NCBI GenBank assembly: GCA_016840405.1
Contig: JAEOSK010000012.1
Span: 1 to 64,000, forward strand
Length of the DNA: 64,000 nt
Origin: Candidatus Hermodarchaeum yapensis
GTDB taxonomy: Archaea > Asgardarchaeota > Hermodarchaeia > Hermodarchaeales > Hermodarchaeaceae
Direction of reading: 5' to 3'
The notes under the pieces are model-generated. The model had not been told where the DNA came from. It did not search any database and saw nothing but the letters and a program-made list of their open reading frames with translations. Shown piece by piece: positions 841-30,278 of the stretch (its first letter is position 1; every line of letters starts with the position of its first letter). A program made the translations under genes and the position numbers.

Positions 841-2046
841 GTGGACCAAAAAAACACAACTTTACTCATCACTGGCGCTTCTCATGGTTTGGTTCACTTG
901 TTAATGCTTGCGCTTCCTTTTATCACTGCTAAACTCTTACTAATCACACCAGTACCTCCTGGGACGGAAGGGCTCGTGGTAATATTGCTGAATACTCCTG
1001 CCTATTTCATATTCGGCTTTGGTGCTCTTCCAGCTGGAGTAATGAGCGACCGCATTGGTCCCCGTCTAACAATTGCACTCGGATTACTCCTTTCCATCGG
1101 TTCCGGAATTGCCCTCTTTTTCCTCTGGCCATTCGGAATTGGGATGATTGCCTTACTCTTCGTAGTTTATGCCTTTGGGGCAGGACTCTATCATCCTGCC
1201 GGAACAGCCTGGGTTTCAAATACTTTTGAAAAGGATCGGGGGAAAGCTTTGGGGCGTCATGGTATTGGGGGCAGTTTCGGACAACTGGCAGCTCCTCTCA
1301 TCTCAGCATTTATTCTGAGTACCGTGTTCTGGCCGGTTATCTTTCTCTTTTTAGCCGGTGTTGGATTTGTATTAGCCTTTGTGTTACTTCGAGTGCATAT
1401 TGAACCCCATACAGTTCAAGTTGAACCCGAAAAAGATACGAACTCGTCAAGAGGCTTTTTCAGCCGAATGACACCTGTCGTCATGATAATTGTTACACTG
1501 GTTTTCGCTGGAAGAGGAATGCTTTATCGGGGAGCAGTTACCGCTCTTCCAATTTATATCACCGATGAGATTGGAGCACTGCTCTTGCTAGCAGGATTCC
1601 TTGGTACTCTTGTCTATGTAGGAGGGATATTTGGTCAGGAATTGGGTGGACGGCTCACTGATAATTTTGGTTGGAAAAATACGCTCGTCTACATGTCCTT
1701 GTTAACTAGTATCTCCTTGTTACTCCTCTCAATCCCATACGCGCCAACACTGTTCAATGATGCTCTGCTCATCTTTGCCATCTTACTTTTTGGATTCTCC
1801 TTTTTCTCAGCTCAAGCAGCAAGTAACACCATGGTAGCTGACCTTTCAGATCCCCAAAGCCGAGGTCTAGTATTTGGTTGGAGCTTCTTTGCACGGTTTG
1901 GGCTTGGTGCATTCGGTATAGTCATAATTGGTCTAAGCCAGGTCTACCTTGGTAGTTGGATTTACGGTTTCTATGCCATGGCTCTGCTAGGGATACTCTC
2001 AGCCGTTTTAGTTCCCCTTGTTTATCAACGACAGACAAGGGAGTAA
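841..2046 (+). CDS. MFS transporter
   Basis: About 12 TM segments; GxxSDRIGPR and GGRLTDNFG motif A copies; GLYHP motif. Confidence 0.9.
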   Translation: MDQKNTTLLITGASHGLVHLLMLALPFITAKLLLITPVPPGTEGLVVILLNTPAYFIFGFGALPAGVMSDRIGPRLTIALGLLLSIGSGIALFFLWPFGIGMIALLFVVYAFGAGLYHPAGTAWVSNTFEKDRGKALGRHGIGGSFGQLAAPLISAFILSTVFWPVIFLFLAGVGFVLAFVLLRVHIEPHTVQVEPEKDTNSSRGFFSRMTPVVMIIVTLVFAGRGMLYRGAVTALPIYITDEIGALLLLAGFLGTLVYVGGIFGQELGGRLTDNFGWKNTLVYMSLLTSISLLLLSIPYAPTLFNDALLIFAILLFGFSFFSAQAASNTMVADLSDPQSRGLVFGWSFFARFGLGAFGIVIIGLSQVYLGSWIYGFYAMALLGILSAVLVPLVYQRQTRE

Positions 2047-21748: not shown

Positions 21749-22255
21749 ATGCAGAACTCGTTTAATTCCTTGGCAATAGTAATTCTCATTATCTTCTTCA
21801 TCGAGCTTCTTATTGCCCGTCGTATCTATCGAAACTCACGAAAAAACAACCAGCTGAGATCCAACTCACAAAACCAAATGTATGTCGTCTTCCAACCCAC
21901 GAATAACTGGCAAGGTACTATTCAACAAAATACAATCAACGGACGACCCATCCCAGCACCTCAACAACCAGTCCCCCAATACATACTCGCCCAACCTCAA
22001 CAACCACCTGTGAAGTCACTTTCTACTCGATTCACCCTTGCTACATTTGTTGGAAGTGTATTCTTAATCGCGTTTTTAACCATCAGTTATCTACTTAGAC
22101 CCTTCACCAATGCATGGGGGATTTATCTCCTTCCAATACTCCTCCCACTTCCATTTCTAGCACTCCCTTCGCTTCTTCAATCCAAGAAATATTCGACGTT
22201 TTTCTTCTTGATAAGCGGTCTTGGTCTCGGGTTTCTCTTCATGCTTCTACTCTAA
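21749..22255 (+). CDS. Hypothetical membrane protein with a Q/P/N-rich loop
   Basis: One N-terminal and three C-terminal TM segments. Confidence 0.65.
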   Translation: MQNSFNSLAIVILIIFFIELLIARRIYRNSRKNNQLRSNSQNQMYVVFQPTNNWQGTIQQNTINGRPIPAPQQPVPQYILAQPQQPPVKSLSTRFTLATFVGSVFLIAFLTISYLLRPFTNAWGIYLLPILLPLPFLALPSLLQSKKYSTFFFLISGLGLGFLFMLLL

Positions 22256-22417
22256 AAGTGAAAACGGAAATGTGTGCAAATAAAAGAAACTTGGTGTGAA
22301 ACAACTACCAATCAAACCCATGTTAGAGACAATCAAGAAAAACCACTGTTGCCTAAACCGCTCATTATAAGAATTATGTGAAATACAGAACCACTGAAGA
22401 GGCAGGTTTAAAGAATA

Positions 22418-24865
22418 ATGCCATTCACTAGGGGTTCAAAGATATACAAGAAACATGTCTTTTCAACAATGTTTCTTGGATTTCTACTGATTATACCCTT
22501 TCTCTTTTTTATGGTTCGAATACCACCAGAAGCCTCTAGCCAAAGTAATCACTCACAATCAGCTAGCCTAGAATACTTCCCAATTCAAAATACTACTCAA
22601 AATCAATCATTCAATTATGATTTGTATGATGGTGAATTTGACCAACAATTCATACACTTTTGGCTTCACGAAAGTGATCTTCAATTCGAACAATCAAGAG
22701 ACTTAGAGATGTTAGTTCCTCCTCAGTCACATCCTCAAATAGAAATCAACAGTGACGCAGACTTCGCCTTACAGGGATGGCCGGGCTCTGGAACTCAAAT
22801 TGATCCATTCCGGATAGAAAATCTAACCTTCAATCCATTGCAATTTCATGATGATTGTATAAAGATTCAGAATACAACGGTCCATTTCATAATTCAAAAT
22901 TGCACATTCTGGACTAGTTCGGAGTGGTACTATGCGGGAATCTTTCTTGACAATACAACCAATGCTATAATGAGAAACAATACACTTTCTTCGGGGTACG
23001 GAATTAAACTATTAAATGCAAACTGGAACGAGATTCTGAACAACACACTAGATGGCAACAGAGTTAGTGTCGTTCTCAGTAACTCATCGCATAATACAAT
23101 CCGGTTCAACAATGGTTCAGGAACCCATGGAATCGAGATATCGAATAGGTCAATATCGAATTTAATCCACATGAATTCACTTGAATATGAAGGGGCTGGA
23201 ATAAGCATCGAAGAATTCGAAGGCACGGTGGTTGCCAATAATTCTCTCATAAATGCAGGTTTTTCGATTTTTTCTATTCAAAGGCCATTCCCTGGTTTAA
23301 ATCAGTCACAATTTCAGGGGAATACCCTCAATGGCAAACCCATCATCTTCTTATTAGATCAAGACAGCAGTGCTCTTCCATTGGATGTTGGACAACTCTT
23401 TCTCATTAATTGCAGCAATACTGAAATGTCAGATAATATCTTGACCGCTGGTCCCCAAACGATTTCATTTTGTCTATCGGAAAATATTACCATTCAAAAT
23501 AATGAGTTTTTAGAAACAGAAGGGCAAGTTCCCGGGTTAATAATACTCAACTGTGAGATTATTCAAATCCGTAATAATACCTTCTATAAGACCAATGGAT
23601 TTTACGTAAAAGAATGCAACACTTGTCACATCTATAATAATTCCTTTCTTGGTGAAGACACATATGGAGTAATTAGCATCCGTGATTCACAGTTTTGCAC
23701 CATCTCTGAAAATAATCATATTATAATTTATGTTGAAAGGATTGACACAATTAGCATTACACAAAATTTATGCGAGTCCAAACTTAATCCGGACTATTAC
23801 TTCACAAAAGGTATCTGGGTAAAAGAGAGTACTGTTGTTAGAATCCAAAATAATACCTGCACAAACTGTAGATTTGGAATATATTGCGAATATACGATGA
23901 ACATTATTATCAATAATACCTGTTTCGATAATTGGTTCGGTATTTATGTTCGTGAAGACAACGGGGGACTCGTTGAGAATAACTACTGTAAAGAAAATGG
24001 AATAGGTATTGTACTCTATGAATGTTGGAATAATATCCTACAAAATAATACATGTGTTGACAATGGATCAGGTGGAATTTCAGTAAGGAGAGTGCAGAAC
24101 TTTCAGGTGCGAAATAACTACTGTTCAAATAATGAATATGGAATAAGTCTTCGTCAGATTTCTGCAGGTGAGTTGAATATTGTTGAACACAACAATTGCT
24201 CCAATAATCACGGCGGTACGCTTTATCCTAGTGATGGTATACGACTTGTTGAAGTCAGAGATATCATAATCTCAAATAATACGTGCAACTTCAATGACAA
24301 TGCAGGTATCCAAATTGAAGATGGGGTTTCAATCATTATCAGCGAGAATCAGTGTTCGGAAAATAGCCTTGGACTCTCCATTGTAGGGGACTCGAGATCA
24401 ATCGCAATCACAGGAAACATTTGTTCGGAAAATAGCTATGGGCTCTCTTTTACTGGTGAGGGCAGAACAATCAATGTTACAGAAAACGTCTGTTCTGAAA
24501 ATCAAATTGGGCTTTTTGTCCATAATAGAACGAGACATTGTCATGTTATCAATAACCATTTTCTCTGGAATAGAAACGAGAGCGTGGTAGACGAAGGGTT
24601 TTACGGCGTGTTTGATGGAAACTTCTGGTCCGATTATGTCGGATGGGATCTGAACTTTGATGGATATGGAGATATCCCATACATAATCCCTGGGCGTGCG
24701 GAAAGTCTCGATTTTCGTCCCCGCGGATTTATTCTTACTAGAAGCTTGCAGATTTGGATGCTGATTCTCTTTGTAGTAGGAGTACTAGTGGTTGTAGCTG
24801 TTATTGGGTGGCATTTTTTAGTAACTCCGCAACGGAGGAAACGCTTCTTTTGGATTTCACGATAA
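22418..24865 (+). CDS. Surface protein with right-handed beta-helix (NosD/CASH-type) repeats
   Basis: GWPGSGTQIDPFRIENL, many NNTC/GI repeats, GNFWSDY..D.N.DGYGD.PY, C-terminal TM. Confidence 0.88.
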   Translation: MPFTRGSKIYKKHVFSTMFLGFLLIIPFLFFMVRIPPEASSQSNHSQSASLEYFPIQNTTQNQSFNYDLYDGEFDQQFIHFWLHESDLQFEQSRDLEMLVPPQSHPQIEINSDADFALQGWPGSGTQIDPFRIENLTFNPLQFHDDCIKIQNTTVHFIIQNCTFWTSSEWYYAGIFLDNTTNAIMRNNTLSSGYGIKLLNANWNEILNNTLDGNRVSVVLSNSSHNTIRFNNGSGTHGIEISNRSISNLIHMNSLEYEGAGISIEEFEGTVVANNSLINAGFSIFSIQRPFPGLNQSQFQGNTLNGKPIIFLLDQDSSALPLDVGQLFLINCSNTEMSDNILTAGPQTISFCLSENITIQNNEFLETEGQVPGLIILNCEIIQIRNNTFYKTNGFYVKECNTCHIYNNSFLGEDTYGVISIRDSQFCTISENNHIIIYVERIDTISITQNLCESKLNPDYYFTKGIWVKESTVVRIQNNTCTNCRFGIYCEYTMNIIINNTCFDNWFGIYVREDNGGLVENNYCKENGIGIVLYECWNNILQNNTCVDNGSGGISVRRVQNFQVRNNYCSNNEYGISLRQISAGELNIVEHNNCSNNHGGTLYPSDGIRLVEVRDIIISNNTCNFNDNAGIQIEDGVSIIISENQCSENSLGLSIVGDSRSIAITGNICSENSYGLSFTGEGRTINVTENVCSENQIGLFVHNRTRHCHVINNHFLWNRNESVVDEGFYGVFDGNFWSDYVGWDLNFDGYGDIPYIIPGRAESLDFRPRGFILTRSLQIWMLILFVVGVLVVVAVIGWHFLVTPQRRKRFFWISR

Positions 24866-24946
24866 AATTGTCAGATTGAAAACTAGTTGAGTAAAACAAA
24901 CTTCTTATGGTAAGATTGGTAAGCTAGGTTTAAGGTTCTCTGAGGT

Positions 24947-25894
24947 TTGATTGTGAATACCACACGGCTTGGTCGCGTTGCAAGGGAAGCATTACTTCTT
25001 ATTCGTAAGTTCATGGGGCAAGGAGATTATTATCGAGCCTCCCAAGCATCGCTGAAAGCTGCGGAAGCCTTCAATGAGATTGCCAAACACTCCTCCGGCT
25101 CAGCACATAAAATTGCCATAAAACGAGCAAGAGTTCTCGTCGAAATAACTAAGGTCCTGCGTCGAGGGGAACCCCTCCCCATGGAACTGGTCGATGCCTT
25201 AGATAGTTTTTATCCAACGCCTGTTCCTTCTCCAACACCCACAACGGATGAATCATCTGTGCCAACTGTAGAATCTGAAGTGGATCCAGAAGAAACGGAA
25301 ACTGCTGTCGAAGAAGATGTTGAACCTCCGGAGAAGATTGAAGTTGGCGATGCACAACACCAACTTCTCAACGGCATAAGGATTGCACATACTATTGTTG
25401 AAATGCTAGACCGTGCTGAACAATCGATTCGAATTATGGTTCAAAACTTCACTAACGTCAAAACAGTAACTGTTGGCAATGAAAGCTGTAACGTAAATCT
25501 TCTCGACCGTCTTATTACCAAAGATAAAGCAGGTGTAAAAATCCGTATCATCATCCGCGATCCCGAAAGTCTAGGTGCAGCAGGGAAGCACTTCCGTGAA
25601 GCCGTGGAAACACTCCTTCACGAAGCGCCCAGCATCGAAATCCTAGTTTGTGCTCAAATGCACATCAAGGCCCTAATCATAGATGAATCTGAAGTTCTGG
25701 AAGGCAGTGCAAACTTCACCACAAAAGGGCTCTCAGGCATCGGCGAACAAGCCACATGGACCAATAACGCTGAGTTTGTATCACAGTTCGTGACGCGGTT
25801 TGATCATTATTGGGTGCATCAAAGCTCCGAATGTACCGAATGCAAGAACCGAACTTGTGAAGTCCACGCACTTACTCGCCGAAACCTAACATAA
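24947..25894 (+). CDS. Phospholipase D-superfamily protein (single HKD) with an N-terminal MIT-like three-helix domain
   Basis: HIKALIIDxxxxxxGSANFT motif; helical N-terminus with GDYxxA; P/T/E-rich linker; C-terminal CxxCx4CxxH. Confidence 0.82.
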   Translation: MIVNTTRLGRVAREALLLIRKFMGQGDYYRASQASLKAAEAFNEIAKHSSGSAHKIAIKRARVLVEITKVLRRGEPLPMELVDALDSFYPTPVPSPTPTTDESSVPTVESEVDPEETETAVEEDVEPPEKIEVGDAQHQLLNGIRIAHTIVEMLDRAEQSIRIMVQNFTNVKTVTVGNESCNVNLLDRLITKDKAGVKIRIIIRDPESLGAAGKHFREAVETLLHEAPSIEILVCAQMHIKALIIDESEVLEGSANFTTKGLSGIGEQATWTNNAEFVSQFVTRFDHYWVHQSSECTECKNRTCEVHALTRRNLT

Positions 25895-26207: not shown

Positions 26208-27989
26208 ATGGCGACTACGGTGCGTAATCGAGAAATCGAAAAAGAAGAATTTAGTCCGAATCAGCGTCGACACAATCGACAAATGATAAAGAAACGTCTG
26301 CACACGGTGCAAGCACATATCACCGAATTGACACACCGTACACCTATCCTCCCCTCAAAGATTCAGTTTTTTGACGATCAATCACTTACTACTCCCACCT
26401 TCTGTGGAACATACAACGGAACAGAGTTCCAAATTGCCAAACAACTCCTCAGTCGACTGCTCTTACTCGATGCTGTGTTATATCGAGAAATGTATGGAAA
26501 TCTTCTACCCAAAATCGTACGCGCTGTTCCGGAAAACGGGGATTTGGGGCTTCTGTGTGCCTATCTCCATCTCCCCGAAAACCAGCAAGAAGAGTTCTTA
26601 AGAATCTGGCAAGTCGTCTCGCCTCGCCAATATTACGGAGACATCTATTACAACGCTCCCTCCTCCTTTCCCCTCTTCAATCGCGTTACTCAGGGGACAT
26701 TCCTCCGATACGTTCTCTCCTTTTTCGATGAACTTGAACCAGCCCTAACTCCATTAACCTCCCGCGAATACGTTGAGCTCTTGGATACTTTCATGCTAAA
26801 TTATGCGTCTCCTCTCACTGATCAAGAACTCCATGTCCTTCATTTGATTCAGGAACATCCCACAGCGACACTGAAACAACTACAGGAAAAATCATCGTTC
26901 TCGTTAGGAAGCCTTAGTAACTATCTGAACAGCTTCCGCAAGAAGCTACTTCTCTCAAGATTCTACAGGATTGATTATCCACGAATACGCCTTAATCACG
27001 TGGCTGTGTTAGCTTATCCCGCCCCTGGTAACAGAGTATCTCGCTATCTTGAACAGTGTCCATACCTAAGAAAAATTCACCAATTTGGAGGCGCAGATGC
27101 ATCTATCCTATTGAGCTATACCATACCTCGACAACGGCTTCGTCGATTACACGAATGGCTACAGGAACTTGTCGGGCTGGGTCACCTCCTTCGGTATCGC
27201 GTCTATCCATTATGTGGTGTCTTCAATGGTTACAATCTTCGGAGTTACTTAGCTTACAATTCTGAGGTTCCGGTTGCAGAACGGTTTCGATGGGTAGCAT
27301 GGATACGCTATCTTCGGGACGTTCTCATCCGGGATGGTTATGGTGAAGTCTTAATTCAGCCCTATGTCTATCATTACAGTGAACCTAACATCGAACCCGC
27401 AAAATTAGATTCCATCGACTATCAGCTTCTCAGTCAAATGAACCCCGAGAGTACTGCCGAAACTCTTGCTCAGTTAATAGGACATTCCATCCATGTAGTT
27501 CGACGACGACAAAAAGAACTGTTCACTCAACACGTCATTTTTGAACGCCCCGACCTTGCCATGTTTCACCTTGGATTAAATGAAACAATCTTTATCATCC
27601 TCGAAGGCAGCGAAGAGACCGTCCGCAACTTTCTAGCGGGATGTCGGGAAGCCCCAATGTTTGGTGGATCCATCTTCCAACACCCCACACCGGGATGTAT
27701 TGTAGCATTTGGCCTCCCAACGGGACTAGCGCTCAAAGTAGGACGAGAACTCGGTCGTCTCTTTCTCGAACAGGATGAATTCGATGCTGCAGTTTTCTAT
27801 GGTAATGGATCCAAAGACTTCATGGTCACATCTGTTCTGAGACGCTGTCAATTTAATTTCGAACTTGGCCAATGGACATGGCATCGAGAATATTTCCCCA
27901 CAGCCTTCGACCATGTGGATCCTCAACATCGCATACTAGGTGTGTCACAAGACACACACCTTTCAAGCTCAAAATTAACTAGGAGTTAA
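26208..27989 (+). CDS. Large protein with two winged-HTH/Lrp-like modules (putative regulator)
   Basis: LTDQELHVLHLIQEHPTATLKQLQ and LDSIDYQLL..TAETLAQLIG..VRRR HTH segments. Confidence 0.7.
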   Translation: MATTVRNREIEKEEFSPNQRRHNRQMIKKRLHTVQAHITELTHRTPILPSKIQFFDDQSLTTPTFCGTYNGTEFQIAKQLLSRLLLLDAVLYREMYGNLLPKIVRAVPENGDLGLLCAYLHLPENQQEEFLRIWQVVSPRQYYGDIYYNAPSSFPLFNRVTQGTFLRYVLSFFDELEPALTPLTSREYVELLDTFMLNYASPLTDQELHVLHLIQEHPTATLKQLQEKSSFSLGSLSNYLNSFRKKLLLSRFYRIDYPRIRLNHVAVLAYPAPGNRVSRYLEQCPYLRKIHQFGGADASILLSYTIPRQRLRRLHEWLQELVGLGHLLRYRVYPLCGVFNGYNLRSYLAYNSEVPVAERFRWVAWIRYLRDVLIRDGYGEVLIQPYVYHYSEPNIEPAKLDSIDYQLLSQMNPESTAETLAQLIGHSIHVVRRRQKELFTQHVIFERPDLAMFHLGLNETIFIILEGSEETVRNFLAGCREAPMFGGSIFQHPTPGCIVAFGLPTGLALKVGRELGRLFLEQDEFDAAVFYGNGSKDFMVTSVLRRCQFNFELGQWTWHREYFPTAFDHVDPQHRILGVSQDTHLSSSKLTRS

Positions 27990-27991
27990 AA

Positions 27992-28324
27992 ATGAACGAC
28001 CAGATTAGATCCGAAAAACCCATTTCAAAACTGGGAACAGAGAAATTACCTCTTCCACGAAAACGTCGCGGTCCAGGCAGAGGAATAGGGCAAAAGCGAA
28101 TAGTTCAAGAAAGACTGGAGATTCTTGACACGATTTTTGATAATCTACAGGAAATGTATAACTTCCTCACACAACAAGGTCACATGATCATCAACGAAAG
28201 TGGCTCAATGCTTGCATCCCAATCCCATCAGAACCTCGATCAACTATTGAAACTGTTAGAAGACTTTCTATGGGTAATTAATTGTGCAATTGCTAAAAAC
28301 GGTGGGCAAGCCAAACTCCCCTAA
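27992..28324 (+). CDS. Hypothetical protein (basic N-terminus, helical C-terminus)
   Basis: GGAG SD; 2 nt after the upstream stop. Confidence 0.6.
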   Translation: MNDQIRSEKPISKLGTEKLPLPRKRRGPGRGIGQKRIVQERLEILDTIFDNLQEMYNFLTQQGHMIINESGSMLASQSHQNLDQLLKLLEDFLWVINCAIAKNGGQAKLP

Positions 28325-29055
28325 ATTAACCTCTTTTGGCGACTTGAGCTAGGTTGAACTACACGCATCTCTTCTAACTGCTCTTCAAATCCAAGAAGAA
28401 ATCCATTGAGGTTTGACGCCGGGACAATAGGAGTTCGATCATTAAATTGGATATCCTCATGCATCATCGTCACGAGCATTGGAACAAATAATGGTGCCTG
28501 CCAATCCAAACACCCAAGGTCGGCTTGAAACCGTGCAAAATGGTTCGCCAAGGTTTTTGTCCGAAGCAGTTGTTCCTCAGTTGCTGTGCGAAGAACTGAA
28601 GCTTTTCCTAAACGTACACCGTATTGCTTACAATCAACACAAAAGAGAATGGGCTTCCGTCGGGCGATGATGTCAATTTCGAATCGACGATTGGTTGAAA
28701 ATCGAAAGCGATGGTGCACCTGAAAATCATAATAGGTAAAGACATGAGCAACAAATTCTTCAAACTCTTGCCAAGTCAACGACTGCAATATTTGGCGCTC
28801 AGGTTCTCCAAGTTGTAATGCCCTGATGGCCACTTGAACCTTGGCGTAACCTGGAAATAACCAATAGTTCTCAGCTTCACGTTGTAGGATATTACCTTCT
28901 TCTAATGAAGCAAGCAAGGCAGATCCTTGGACAAGCTCAGACACTTGATCTTGGTGAATTGAGGAAACACCTTGCGTAACCGCTAGAAGATTCCGCAGCT
29001 GTGTCCCATTCTGAAATGACGCTAGAACTCGCTTCCCTTCATGTAGCCAGTCCAG
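28321..29055 (-). CDS. Mrr-like PD-(D/E)xK restriction-endonuclease-fold protein (probable CTG start)
   Basis: LTWQEFEEFVA, FEIDIIA, VDCKQY motifs; frame is open upstream of the 28944 GTG to a CTG at 29055, 6 nt after GAGGTGA. Confidence 0.8.
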   Translation of the reverse strand: MDWLHEGKRVLASFQNGTQLRNLLAVTQGVSSIHQDQVSELVQGSALLASLEEGNILQREAENYWLFPGYAKVQVAIRALQLGEPERQILQSLTWQEFEEFVAHVFTYYDFQVHHRFRFSTNRRFEIDIIARRKPILFCVDCKQYGVRLGKASVLRTATEEQLLRTKTLANHFARFQADLGCLDWQAPLFVPMLVTMMHEDIQFNDRTPIVPASNLNGFLLGFEEQLEEMRVVQPSSSRQKRLI

Positions 29056-29093
29056 CTGAACTCACCTCAAAATCACTCTCACTAGTGAAGCAA

Positions 29094-29480
29094 TTAGACG
29101 TCAAGTTCACGCAAGGCTACTTTGATTTCTCTTAGCGCATTGTTGATGCCACGAAGGAAAAACCGCGTATTCCGTGGCACTAACGCGGCTAATATCACGT
29201 ACTTACCATCTTGTAGTTGGGTGGATTTACAGACAAGAATACCATTTTCACACCGGATTGTGATATCGCGGATAGCGCCGAGGGTTAGTTCCTCCCTAGC
29301 GCGGTCTGCCGCATTATGAACAAAACTGCCCATTGCCGCTGCAACCTTTTCATCAACACCTCGGCGAACAGCCGATGCGATGACAAACCCTTCATCTGTG
29401 GCAATGATGCTCGCTTTAACTCGCCCTGAGCTATTCAAATCCTCTAAGATCTTTGTTAGCGCATCAACAGTTGAGGACAT
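29094..29480 (-). CDS. Roadblock/LC7 domain protein
   Basis: VKASIIATDEGFVIAS, AAAMGS, ELTLGAIRDITIRCENG; GGAGG SD. Confidence 0.9.
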   Translation of the reverse strand: MSSTVDALTKILEDLNSSGRVKASIIATDEGFVIASAVRRGVDEKVAAAMGSFVHNAADRAREELTLGAIRDITIRCENGILVCKSTQLQDGKYVILAALVPRNTRFFLRGINNALREIKVALRELDV

Positions 29481-29642
29481 CTACCAGTTCCTCCAATAAC
29501 CAGTTTCCACCGCTGCACTTCACATCATATTTAGTACAACGGCTTATAAATTCCGCTTGCGTTCATTTTTTCTTCTCTTCGAAGAACAGTTCCCTCGACA
29601 CGTAACTATTTAGAGAACCTCCCCCTTCAAAACCCACTATCT

Positions 29643-30278
29643 TTGGTGGAATTCACGATGAGCTTAGAACTCCGCAATACCTGGATTATCATCACAACGA
29701 TCATCATCACAATTGTATCTCTGGTGTTATTCTTTGCCCGAAACCGTTTAACCTGGGTTCATCGCTACAACGACAACTTTCTCGGTGTGTTTGGCATTGA
29801 AACAAGTCATGTTCCTTGGGTTCGATATCTAGTGAGTTGGATACTAGGAACCTGTATCGCTACTGTGCTACTCACACTTCTAATCAACATTGGCTTCACC
29901 TTGTATTTATTGTCAGGTCTTTCTGGTATTCCTCTTGATGCCGTTGTCATCTCATTAGCCATTGGGGCAATCATTCTCACGGTTATCCTGCTCATCGCAG
30001 CCATTCCGGCGGTTCTTGCTATGCCATTATCCTGTCCTACGGCCCTTGGCGTTTTCATTTTCCTTACTCAGTACGCCTACGAATACGTCCCTGGTTTACC
30101 CTCAACTATCGTCTATAATCTCAGTTATCTCAGCACCTTACTCTACCTTGGAACCATCGCAATCGGGTTCGTCGCCATTTTCCTATCTTTTTACCTCCTC
30201 CTCCGCACCTACCTCCTTACCCCATTAATAAAACGACGACGAACCCAATCTAATGAAGAAACTGCCAACCCTGAATGA
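29643..30278 (+). CDS. Hypothetical membrane protein
   Basis: About 5 TM segments. Confidence 0.7.
   Translation: MVEFTMSLELRNTWIIITTIIITIVSLVLFFARNRLTWVHRYNDNFLGVFGIETSHVPWVRYLVSWILGTCIATVLLTLLINIGFTLYLLSGLSGIPLDAVVISLAIGAIILTVILLIAAIPAVLAMPLSCPTALGVFIFLTQYAYEYVPGLPSTIVYNLSYLSTLLYLGTIAIGFVAIFLSFYLLLRTYLLTPLIKRRRTQSNEETANPE

Follow-up and report, generated by a model that had tools for sequence, protein, structure and literature searches.

A conserved Asgard archaeal protein coupling a divergent MIT-type bundle to a single-HKD phosphodiesterase domain, with possible recruitment to ESCRT-III

In a stretch of 64,000 nucleotides from Candidatus Hermodarchaeum yapensis (contig JAEOSK010000012.1, positions 1 to 64,000 of the forward strand; hereafter, the window), the open reading frame at 24947-25894 encodes a protein, designated P0001, which very probably consists of an MIT-family module and an active single-HKD phosphodiesterase of the phospholipase D (PLD) superfamily, as had been predicted in a first-pass annotation of the same DNA. 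[quoted passage not shown] All elements listed in the first-pass annotation, namely a helical bundle, a P/T/E-rich linker, a single PLD domain with HxKxxxxD and GSAN motifs and a CxxCx4CxxH tail, were present in this reading frame. The features of the gene are as follows, with residue numbers counted throughout from the TTG codon at 24947:

24947..25894, plus strand: open reading frame of P0001, 315 aa from TTG with the stop codon included in the span; a conserved Asgard MIT-like/PLD protein.
24942..24955, plus strand: Shine-Dalgarno-like GAGGT (24942-24946) and probable GTG start codon (24953-24955), from the sequence and the N-termini of homologs.
24959..25162, plus strand: three-helix MIT-like bundle, residues 5-72, with a predicted local distance difference test (pLDDT) score of 93 in the AlphaFold2 model and with fold and profile matches to MIT.
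25181..25204, plus strand: short, conserved fourth helix after the bundle, residues 79-86 (LVDALDSF), from the AlphaFold2 model and the alignment; shared with a transglutaminase-fused version of the module.
25220..25348, plus strand: predicted disordered, P/T/E-rich, fast-evolving linker, residues 92-134, with pLDDT below 50 and about 20% identity among orthologs.
25358..25816, plus strand: single-HKD PLD-fold phosphodiesterase domain, residues 138-290, from Pfam PLDc_2, the VIA structure search and a profile search of PDB sequences.
25649..25651, plus strand: Cys235, four residues N-terminal to the catalytic His, invariant in three clades; candidate fourth zinc ligand.
25661..25714, plus strand: catalytic motif H239-x-K241-x4-D246-x6-G253-S-A-N256, intact and conserved in the alignment.
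25832..25867, plus strand: C296-x2-C299-x4-C304-x2-H307 cluster, a probable zinc knuckle, from the alignment; model confidence is low here.

P0001 is the product of a real, conserved gene and not of a chance frame, since 48 full-length homologs (290-340 aa) were found, all of them in Asgard metagenome-assembled genomes. The GAGGT motif directly abuts the TTG at 24947 and lies 6 nt from an in-frame GTG at 24953. Because of this spacing, and because the N-termini of homologs (MNTTRL...) coincide with the residue encoded by that GTG, it is probably the true start rather than the TTG, in which case the protein would have 313 aa. Both modules are under purifying selection and the tether between them is free: mean identity to P0001 among 26 homologs was 77% for the N-domain, 72% for the PLD domain and 83% for the tail, as against about 20% for the linker. 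The N-domain is therefore conserved as strongly as the catalytic domain, which would suit a protein partner that is itself conserved. Members of the active clade were recovered solely from the class to which the window belongs (one family, two genera, 19 genomes), where P0001 occurred in every genome searched, at 56-74% identity that tracked taxonomy. In public records, homologs are annotated only as 'phospholipase D family protein', under source labels that vary between Promethearchaeota, Hermodarchaeota and Thorarchaeota, and the JGI name is cardiolipin/phosphatidylserine synthase-like. In one aligned family member, P0044, the catalytic His is replaced by Gln and the Cys tail is missing, which may mean that this copy is truncated or decaying.

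When residues 1-80 were compared with MIT domains, as the first-pass annotation had suggested, the best matches in both structure searches were MIT domains, and a profile match to Asgard Vps4 MIT domains was obtained as well. AlphaFold2 placed the helices of the N-domain at residues 5-24, 28-47 and 51-72, followed by the short helix at 79-86, and the domain folded alone reached a pLDDT of 93 and a predicted template modelling (TM) score of 0.85. The GxYxxA turn noted previously was found between the first two helices (G26-D-Y28-Y-R-A31), with G26 and A31 invariant; its Tyr is not a fixed feature, as Y28 varies among homologs. The first three Foldseek matches were MIT domains of Sulfolobus Vps4/CdvC (2w2u and 2v6y; target-normalised TM score 0.81-0.84, root-mean-square deviation (rmsd) 1.4-2.2), with 2w2u being the best (0.84), and the top 40 included the MIT domains of SKD1, VPS4A/B, katanin p60, LIP5, NRBF2, spartin and MITD1. 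An exhaustive search with VIA again ranked 2w2u first (Z 10.7, rmsd 1.9, 73 of 74 residues) and gave Z 10.4 for the MIT domain of calpain-7. A feature search of the ESM Atlas yielded clusters for MIT, katanin-MIT and NRBF2-MIT with values of 0.78-0.81, none of which reaches the level of 0.9 needed to count as anything beyond a lead.

Profile comparisons with hhalign were in line with the fold matches. The N-domain family profile aligned to the MIT domain of the genome's own Vps4 with an E-value of 1.7e-4 (34% identity, 61 columns), and to an ungapped alignment of 31 Asgard Vps4 MIT domains, taken from genomes, with a probability of 85%, an E-value of 6e-6 and a score of 32.5 over 62 columns that covered all three helices. 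Sixty column-shuffles of this target scored 10.6 ± 2.2 (maximum 16.9) and the reversed target 13.7, so that the real score stood about 10 standard deviations above the shuffles. The claim of an MIT-like N-module is thus borne out by the fold, by the Vps4 MIT profile and by homologous PLD proteins in which an MIT domain significant in Pfam occupies the equivalent place, which together suggest that the N-module of P0001 is a divergent MIT-type bundle.

These homologs were recovered by running the Pfam MIT model over 61 Asgard genomes. Proteins of about 275 aa from Jordarchaeia (P0059, P0061-P0073) matched Pfam MIT at 35.9-36.4 bits (cut-off 30) and also PLDc_2, with an intact HKD motif and a CxxCx4C tail. 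In the case of P0059 the Pfam MIT match was 35.9 bits and the PLD-plus-tail region was 34% identical to that of P0001 (E 9e-29), and the Jordarchaeia MIT domain aligned to Vps4 MIT at 97.7% in hhalign. This clade was found in one other family among the 20 Asgard families sampled; its members bear the public labels Freyarchaeum or Jordarchaeaceae and are annotated only as 'phospholipase D-like domain-containing protein'. They share with P0001 a homologous PLD domain, in which the HKD motif is intact and the catalytic His is preceded by the invariant Cys, as well as the CxxCx4C tail and a helical bundle in the same place. They differ in having a Pfam-significant MIT domain, a short linker and a tail without His, whereas in P0001 the bundle is divergent and includes a KHSxG loop, there is an additional helix, and the linker is long and acidic.

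Further proteins with MIT-type modules were located outside the window:

Contig C14:98392-99216 (L004:889-1713), minus strand: P0050, a paralog of 275 aa in the same genome, with MIT, pseudo-PLD and CxxCx4C tail.
L081:140-991, minus strand; L082:112-969, minus strand; L017:1336-2169, plus strand: the same N-module as in P0001, fourth helix included, joined to a transglutaminase-like core, in a sister genus.
L055:391-1083, minus strand: protein of 231 aa with MIT (Pfam, 37.6 bits) and a NucS_C endonuclease domain (35 bits), in another Asgard family.

The paralog P0050 has the same architecture as P0001, with a PLD-plus-tail region that is 26% identical (E 4e-22); it aligned over its full length with P0059 (E 2e-33), and its N-domain profile matched Vps4 MIT at 93% in hhalign. 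Unlike in P0001, HxK is replaced by HxN and GSAN by GTAP (or GTAS/GSAP) in all seven orthologs examined. Wherever a genome of the class was searched, P0050 was found alongside the active protein. Judged by these motifs, it is a stable, conserved pseudo-enzyme, and possibly a heterodimer partner of active P0001.

The N-module itself appears to be a mobile adaptor, because a sister-genus protein joins it to a transglutaminase-like protease. In this protein, P0057 (277 aa), the N-module was 35% identical to that of P0001 over 104 residues, including the fourth helix, and the core, in which Cys, His and Asp candidates were picked by eye, matched Pfam Transglut_core (E 4.8e-7). No such fusion was found in the genome that encodes P0001, which is 86% complete; when P0057 was searched against that genome, the next-best match after P0001 was the MIT domain of Vps4 (E 0.07). 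By domain assignment, Asgard MIT-type modules are attached to at least four effector domains.

The second half of P0001 is a single-HKD domain with the PLD fold. Pfam PLDc_2 (PF13091) matched residues 150-289 with an E-value of 2.3e-18 and 66.7 bits (cut-off 27), and Foldseek aligned the domain to the nuclease Nuc (1byr; E 1e-8, target-normalised TM score 0.77). The nearest structures in VIA were NucT (Z 16.7, rmsd 2.1, 140 residues), Nuc (16.2) and the pseudo-PLD FAM83B (16.0), with Zucchini/MitoPLD (14.6) and TrmB/TrmBL2 (about 14) further down; PLD domains of restriction enzymes ranked lower (SauUSI 13.5, BfiI 12.2, NgoAVII 11.4). A PLD profile built from the three clades (those of P0001, of P0050 and of the Jordarchaeia proteins) was searched against PDB sequences; the bacterial phospholipase 7e0m came first (2.6e-9), Nuc (5.4e-8) and MitoPLD (5.7e-8) were also matched, as were the poxvirus nicking-joining enzyme and the PLD3/4 exonucleases. 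Together with the intact motif, these matches uphold the description of P0001 as an intact single-HKD enzyme of the Nuc/Zucchini kind. The NCBIfam model for NucT (PRK13912) scored only 21 bits against a cut-off of 297; hence, the resemblance to Nuc and NucT is at the level of fold and superfamily only.

Residues invariant in the three clades were the catalytic His and Asp, the Gly and Thr of the GSxN region, one Trp, Cys235, C296 and C299. C304 was nearly invariant across them, and His307 was confined to the clade of P0001. This pattern suggests that C235, C296, C299 and C304 may form a zinc site tying the tail to the strand of the active site, a region in which the model is of low confidence. 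In single-HKD enzymes, two copies of the domain are needed to build one active site, and by analogy with Nuc and Zucchini the PLD domain of P0001 would be expected to dimerise. No hydrophobic segment was found in P0001.

Regarding possible partners, the first-pass annotation had relied on the presence of ESCRT in Asgard archaea, and the genome of P0001 indeed encodes Vps4 and two Snf7-family ESCRT-III proteins (P0052 and P0053), all on contig C19. The ends of the latter two are located as follows:

L057 (contig C19):868-1047 and 1501-1680, minus strand: tails of the ESCRT-III paralogs, both with a proline motif followed by a terminal amphipathic helix.

These tails hardly vary among the 19 genomes of the class, and the ESCRT-III proteins show 84-99% identity vs. 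56-74% for the PLD protein. P0053 ends in SLPEPEKRVSELESEIQRLKEEG, an Ile/Leu-rich helix resembling an MIT-interacting motif of type 1 (MIM1), a kind of helix that has been described for Asgard Vps2/24/46 (PMC7240154). The tail of P0052 contains LPSVPEGE, which is MIM2-like, followed by a basic helix.

Binding was modelled by complex prediction with the N-domain alignment and the last 36 residues of both ESCRT-III tails. The interface score ipSAE was 0.44, 0.31 and 0.33 in three runs (median 0.33, which lies in the band of weak support), compared to 0.01 for the best control; the runs agreed in at least 42% of contacts, with a partner pLDDT of at least 70. Replacement of the P0053 tail by an unrelated peptide lowered the ipSAE to 0.01, indicating that the modelled contact is made by the MIM1-like tail. 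In the calibration of this procedure, 58 of 80 solved complexes passed the mark, as did 2 of 110 mismatched pairs; those that passed with an ipSAE of 0.60 or less comprised only 7 of the 80 solved complexes, together with both of these mismatched pairs. Further, MIT-MIM complexes have already been solved, so that a predicted pass may reflect likeness to them rather than binding. The check with ESCRT-III tails that had been proposed scored above its control but within the weak band, and we regard it as a small, weak push in favour of tail binding.

On the basis of these results, P0001 can be pictured as a soluble two-module enzyme, in which a divergent MIT-type docking bundle (residues 5-88) would be followed by a disordered tether of about 45 residues and a single-HKD phosphodiesterase with a Cys-rich, probably zinc-binding tail beside it. 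The MIT-like module would bind the C-terminal MIM-type tail of polymerised ESCRT-III, most likely that of the Vps2/24/46-like subunit, and the length of the tether might bring the neck of the membrane, or what it contains, within reach of the PLD domain. A raised local concentration of the enzyme on the polymer could then favour formation of the dimer that builds the active site at sites of membrane remodelling or division, where this dimer would cleave a phosphodiester bond. Within this model, we put the odds at about 60:40 that the substrate is a nucleic acid rather than a lipid head group, because the nearest folds are nucleases (NucT, Nuc and Zucchini) and the nearest sequences include nucleases, and because of the Cys cluster and the parallel MIT-NucS fusion.

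The surroundings of the gene are conserved on its downstream side. Intergenic spacers of about 80 nt upstream and 313 nt downstream separate it from its neighbours, and the following block was recognised:

26208-30278, both strands: conserved gene-order block downstream of the PLD gene, found also in L009, L011, L013, L015 and L016 (five related contigs).

The order within the block is the PLD gene, usually a helix-turn-helix protein of about 590 aa (MarR/HTH_24), a 110-aa protein, a Mrr_cat/NERD-like protein (minus strand), a Roadblock/LC7 protein (minus strand) and a protein of about 205 aa that had no Pfam match. The proteins of about 590 aa and 110 aa are missing from the block in one relative. 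Neither ESCRT nor DISARM or Dpd genes were found near the PLD gene in the five related contigs. This context speaks neither for nor against a link to ESCRT and argues against a mobile defence island. Directly upstream of the PLD gene, at 22418-24865 on the plus strand, lies a gene whose 815-aa product is a NosD/right-handed beta-helix repeat protein with hydrophobic segments at its termini, and this stretch shows the lowest G+C content of the window (0.369, at 22001-24000); the upstream locus varies among relatives. All or part of the window was detected in 20 metagenome runs from marine sediment, seawater, estuary and marsh, with no RNA run among those listed.

A number of results weigh against recruitment of P0001 to ESCRT-III, and several of them favour instead a TPR- or MIT-like (TPR, tetratricopeptide repeat) adaptor that has ceased to read ESCRT-III, or never did so, and serves another partner, self-association or regulation in a cytosolic nucleic-acid phosphodiesterase without a role in membrane remodelling, a reading that we consider less likely. 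The Pfam MIT model (PF04212, gathering threshold 30 bits) did not match residues 1-95 of P0001 or any of 20 orthologous N-domains at E-values up to 10; the only Pfam matches to these domains were weak noise (PaREP1, TPR_WDR35 and FliS), and a hidden Markov model of the N-domain found only designed helical repeats, at E 0.57 or worse, among PDB sequences. Against 1.84 billion representative proteins, the N-domain profile gave six matches, none of them to Vps4: the P0001 family itself, the transglutaminase fusion P0057 and, as the only others, two TPR-repeat proteins, whose matches span just the helix 1-2 hairpin. MIT domains are known for a TPR-like packing; the TPR matches fit this, yet they imply that the sequence signal of the N-domain is partly generic. 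The Foldseek E-values for the N-domain were weak (best, 0.09) and many unrelated or designed helical bundles reached Z 9-10 in VIA, and therefore the fold alone does not settle its identity as MIT. Vps4 MIT lacks both the invariant KHSxG loop and the insertion of four residues in helix 1, and helix 79-86 could occupy the binding groove in cis. The PLD gene, on contig C33, lies apart from the ESCRT cluster on C19 and never adjoins ESCRT genes in five related genomes. An ipSAE of 0.33 falls in a band where passes are wrong more often than they are right, except for pairings that were likely to begin with. In hhalign the N-domain was only weakly similar to the MIT domain of the Jordarchaeia proteins (E 0.013), and no similarity to that of P0050 was found. 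The N-domains of all three clades were each closer to Vps4 MIT than to one another, the pattern expected if they had diverged independently from a shared MIT ancestor. Against an adaptor unrelated to ESCRT-III also stand the profile alignment with all three Vps4 MIT helices, far above the shuffles, the fusion of a homologous PLD domain to a true MIT domain in two other clades and, weakly, the dependence of the complex score on the MIM1-like tail.

Recruitment to ESCRT-III was also weighed against other roles for the PLD domain. The best NCBIfam and PADLOC matches were DpdK and DrmC, and a Mrr_cat-like gene lies about 2.4 kb downstream on the opposite strand, which would suit an anti-virus defence nuclease of the DrmC/DpdK kind; but these matches scored 37.6 (cut-off 100) and 28.8 (cut-off 133), respectively, both weaker than the generic PLDc_2 match, PADLOC found no DISARM or Dpd partner among the neighbours, and the conserved gene-order block with identity tracking taxonomy is unlike a mobile defence island, so that such a role is scarcely credible. 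It is improbable, though less so, that P0001 acts on phospholipids like a cardiolipin or phosphatidylserine synthase, remodelling lipids with or without ESCRT recruitment to a neck. The JGI name and the top PDB-sequence match, 7e0m, point that way, MitoPLD has been described as a cardiolipin hydrolase, and local removal of head groups would be sensible at a scission site. Synthases and classical PLDs, however, have two HKD motifs and many are membrane-anchored, whereas P0001 has one HKD and no hydrophobic segment; its nearest folds are nucleases, and the Cys cluster and the MIT-NucS parallel point to nucleic acid. Lastly, we judge it very unlikely that P0001 is a direct ortholog or ancestor of eukaryotic MITD1, with the C-terminal MIT_C domain of the latter descending from an Asgard MIT-PLD protein. 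In favour of such descent, the two proteins share their domain order, the C-terminal domain is of the PLD superfamily in each, and P0050, which has lost the catalytic Lys and the Asn of GSxN yet stays conserved, illustrates that pseudo-enzymes evolve readily. On the other hand, a hmmscan of P0001 at E-values up to 1 listed PLDc_2 and not MIT_C, the PLD-profile search of PDB sequences that matched Nuc and MitoPLD contained no MITD1 chain at E-values up to 10, and the family was present in only 2 of the 20 Asgard families sampled. The C-terminal domain of MITD1 is Pfam MIT_C (PF16565), with a different, HDR-type signature, and occurs also in bacterial BrxL (PMC12065111). In addition, no chain of the C-terminal domain of MITD1 was among the top 50 matches listed of the whole-model Foldseek or VIA searches. 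MIT_C was likewise not found in the 61 Asgard genomes, a result that says little, as the search had no positive control (no match in control genomes either).

Recruitment of P0001 by its MIT-like module, if correct, would bear on the history of ESCRT. In eukaryotes, about twenty MIT-domain proteins, among them MITD1, calpain-7, AMSH, spastin and ULK3, are brought to ESCRT-III by an MIT-MIM code (PMC9477494), and discussion of MIT in archaea has dealt essentially with the N-terminal domain of Vps4/CdvC (PMC10936438, PMC7240154); our literature search turned up no paper that connects Asgard archaea with MITD1 or with MIT-PLD fusions. The present results suggest a putative tethering of enzymes to ESCRT before eukaryotes arose. 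If the N-module binds ESCRT-III, MIT-based recruitment of effectors would predate eukaryogenesis, and a 92-residue domain, 36-residue tails and a simple enzyme would offer a small, tractable test system. The active and dead paralogs together provide a natural example of how an MITD1-like pseudo-enzyme can arise. A broader and more doubtful scenario, which we put forward tentatively, is an Asgard MIT-MIM recruitment code in which ESCRT-III would dock the PLD nuclease, its pseudo-PLD paralog (which may pair with it), the transglutaminase-like protease and the NucS-like endonuclease; the PLD and NucS enzymes would remove or process nucleic acid caught in the neck during division or scission, and such a system would be an archaeal precursor of MITD1 and calpain-7, the eukaryotic cofactors of abscission.

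Human MITD1 (MIT plus MIT_C; PDB 4a5x, 4a5z and 2ymb; Hadders et al. 2012, cited in PMC12065111) has, like P0001, an N-terminal three-helix MIT bundle, a linker and a C-terminal PLD-superfamily domain, which in MITD1 dimerises, and the MIT domain of MITD1 superposed on the N-domain model of P0001 with Z 9.4-9.7 and an rmsd of 2.2 over 71 of 73 residues. Unlike MITD1, P0001 carries a canonical, conserved HKD domain of the PLDc_2 family with an intact active site and a Cys tail, and its N-domain lies below the Pfam MIT threshold. The architecture of MITD1, which the first-pass annotation had attributed to P0001, was thus confirmed as a domain layout, with PLDc_2 rather than MIT_C at the C-terminus. 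Its further designation as an archaeal MITD1 counterpart does not hold in the sense of family membership, given the lack of an MIT_C match in hmmscan and of an MITD1 chain in the PDB-sequence profile search, and the comparison of the C-terminal domain with MITD1, Nuc and Zucchini that it had called for recovered Nuc and Zucchini, as well as NucT, among the matches listed. P0001 shares the layout of MITD1 and may work similarly, yet an independent fusion is the simpler and, from the domain assignments, the most likely reading. By its altered motifs, the paralog P0050 is the closer mimic of the MITD1 layout.

Among PLD enzymes, Nuc of Salmonella (1byr/1bys), NucT of H. pylori (6ehi) and Zucchini/MitoPLD (4ggj, 4gel) share the single-HKD PLD fold with P0001 and are homodimeric phosphodiesterases acting on nucleic acids. 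In contrast to P0001, none of them contains an MIT-type module; secretion or a periplasmic location is the rule for Nuc and NucT, and Zucchini is tethered to mitochondria. The plan of an MIT module, a flexible linker and an enzyme recurs in the eukaryotic MIT enzymes calpain-7, AMSH, USP8, spastin and ULK3 (PMC9477494), which differ in their catalytic domains; the archaeal proteins are known here from sequence and models. Among the latter, the fusion of the N-module to a transglutaminase-like (papain-fold) protease parallels calpain-7.

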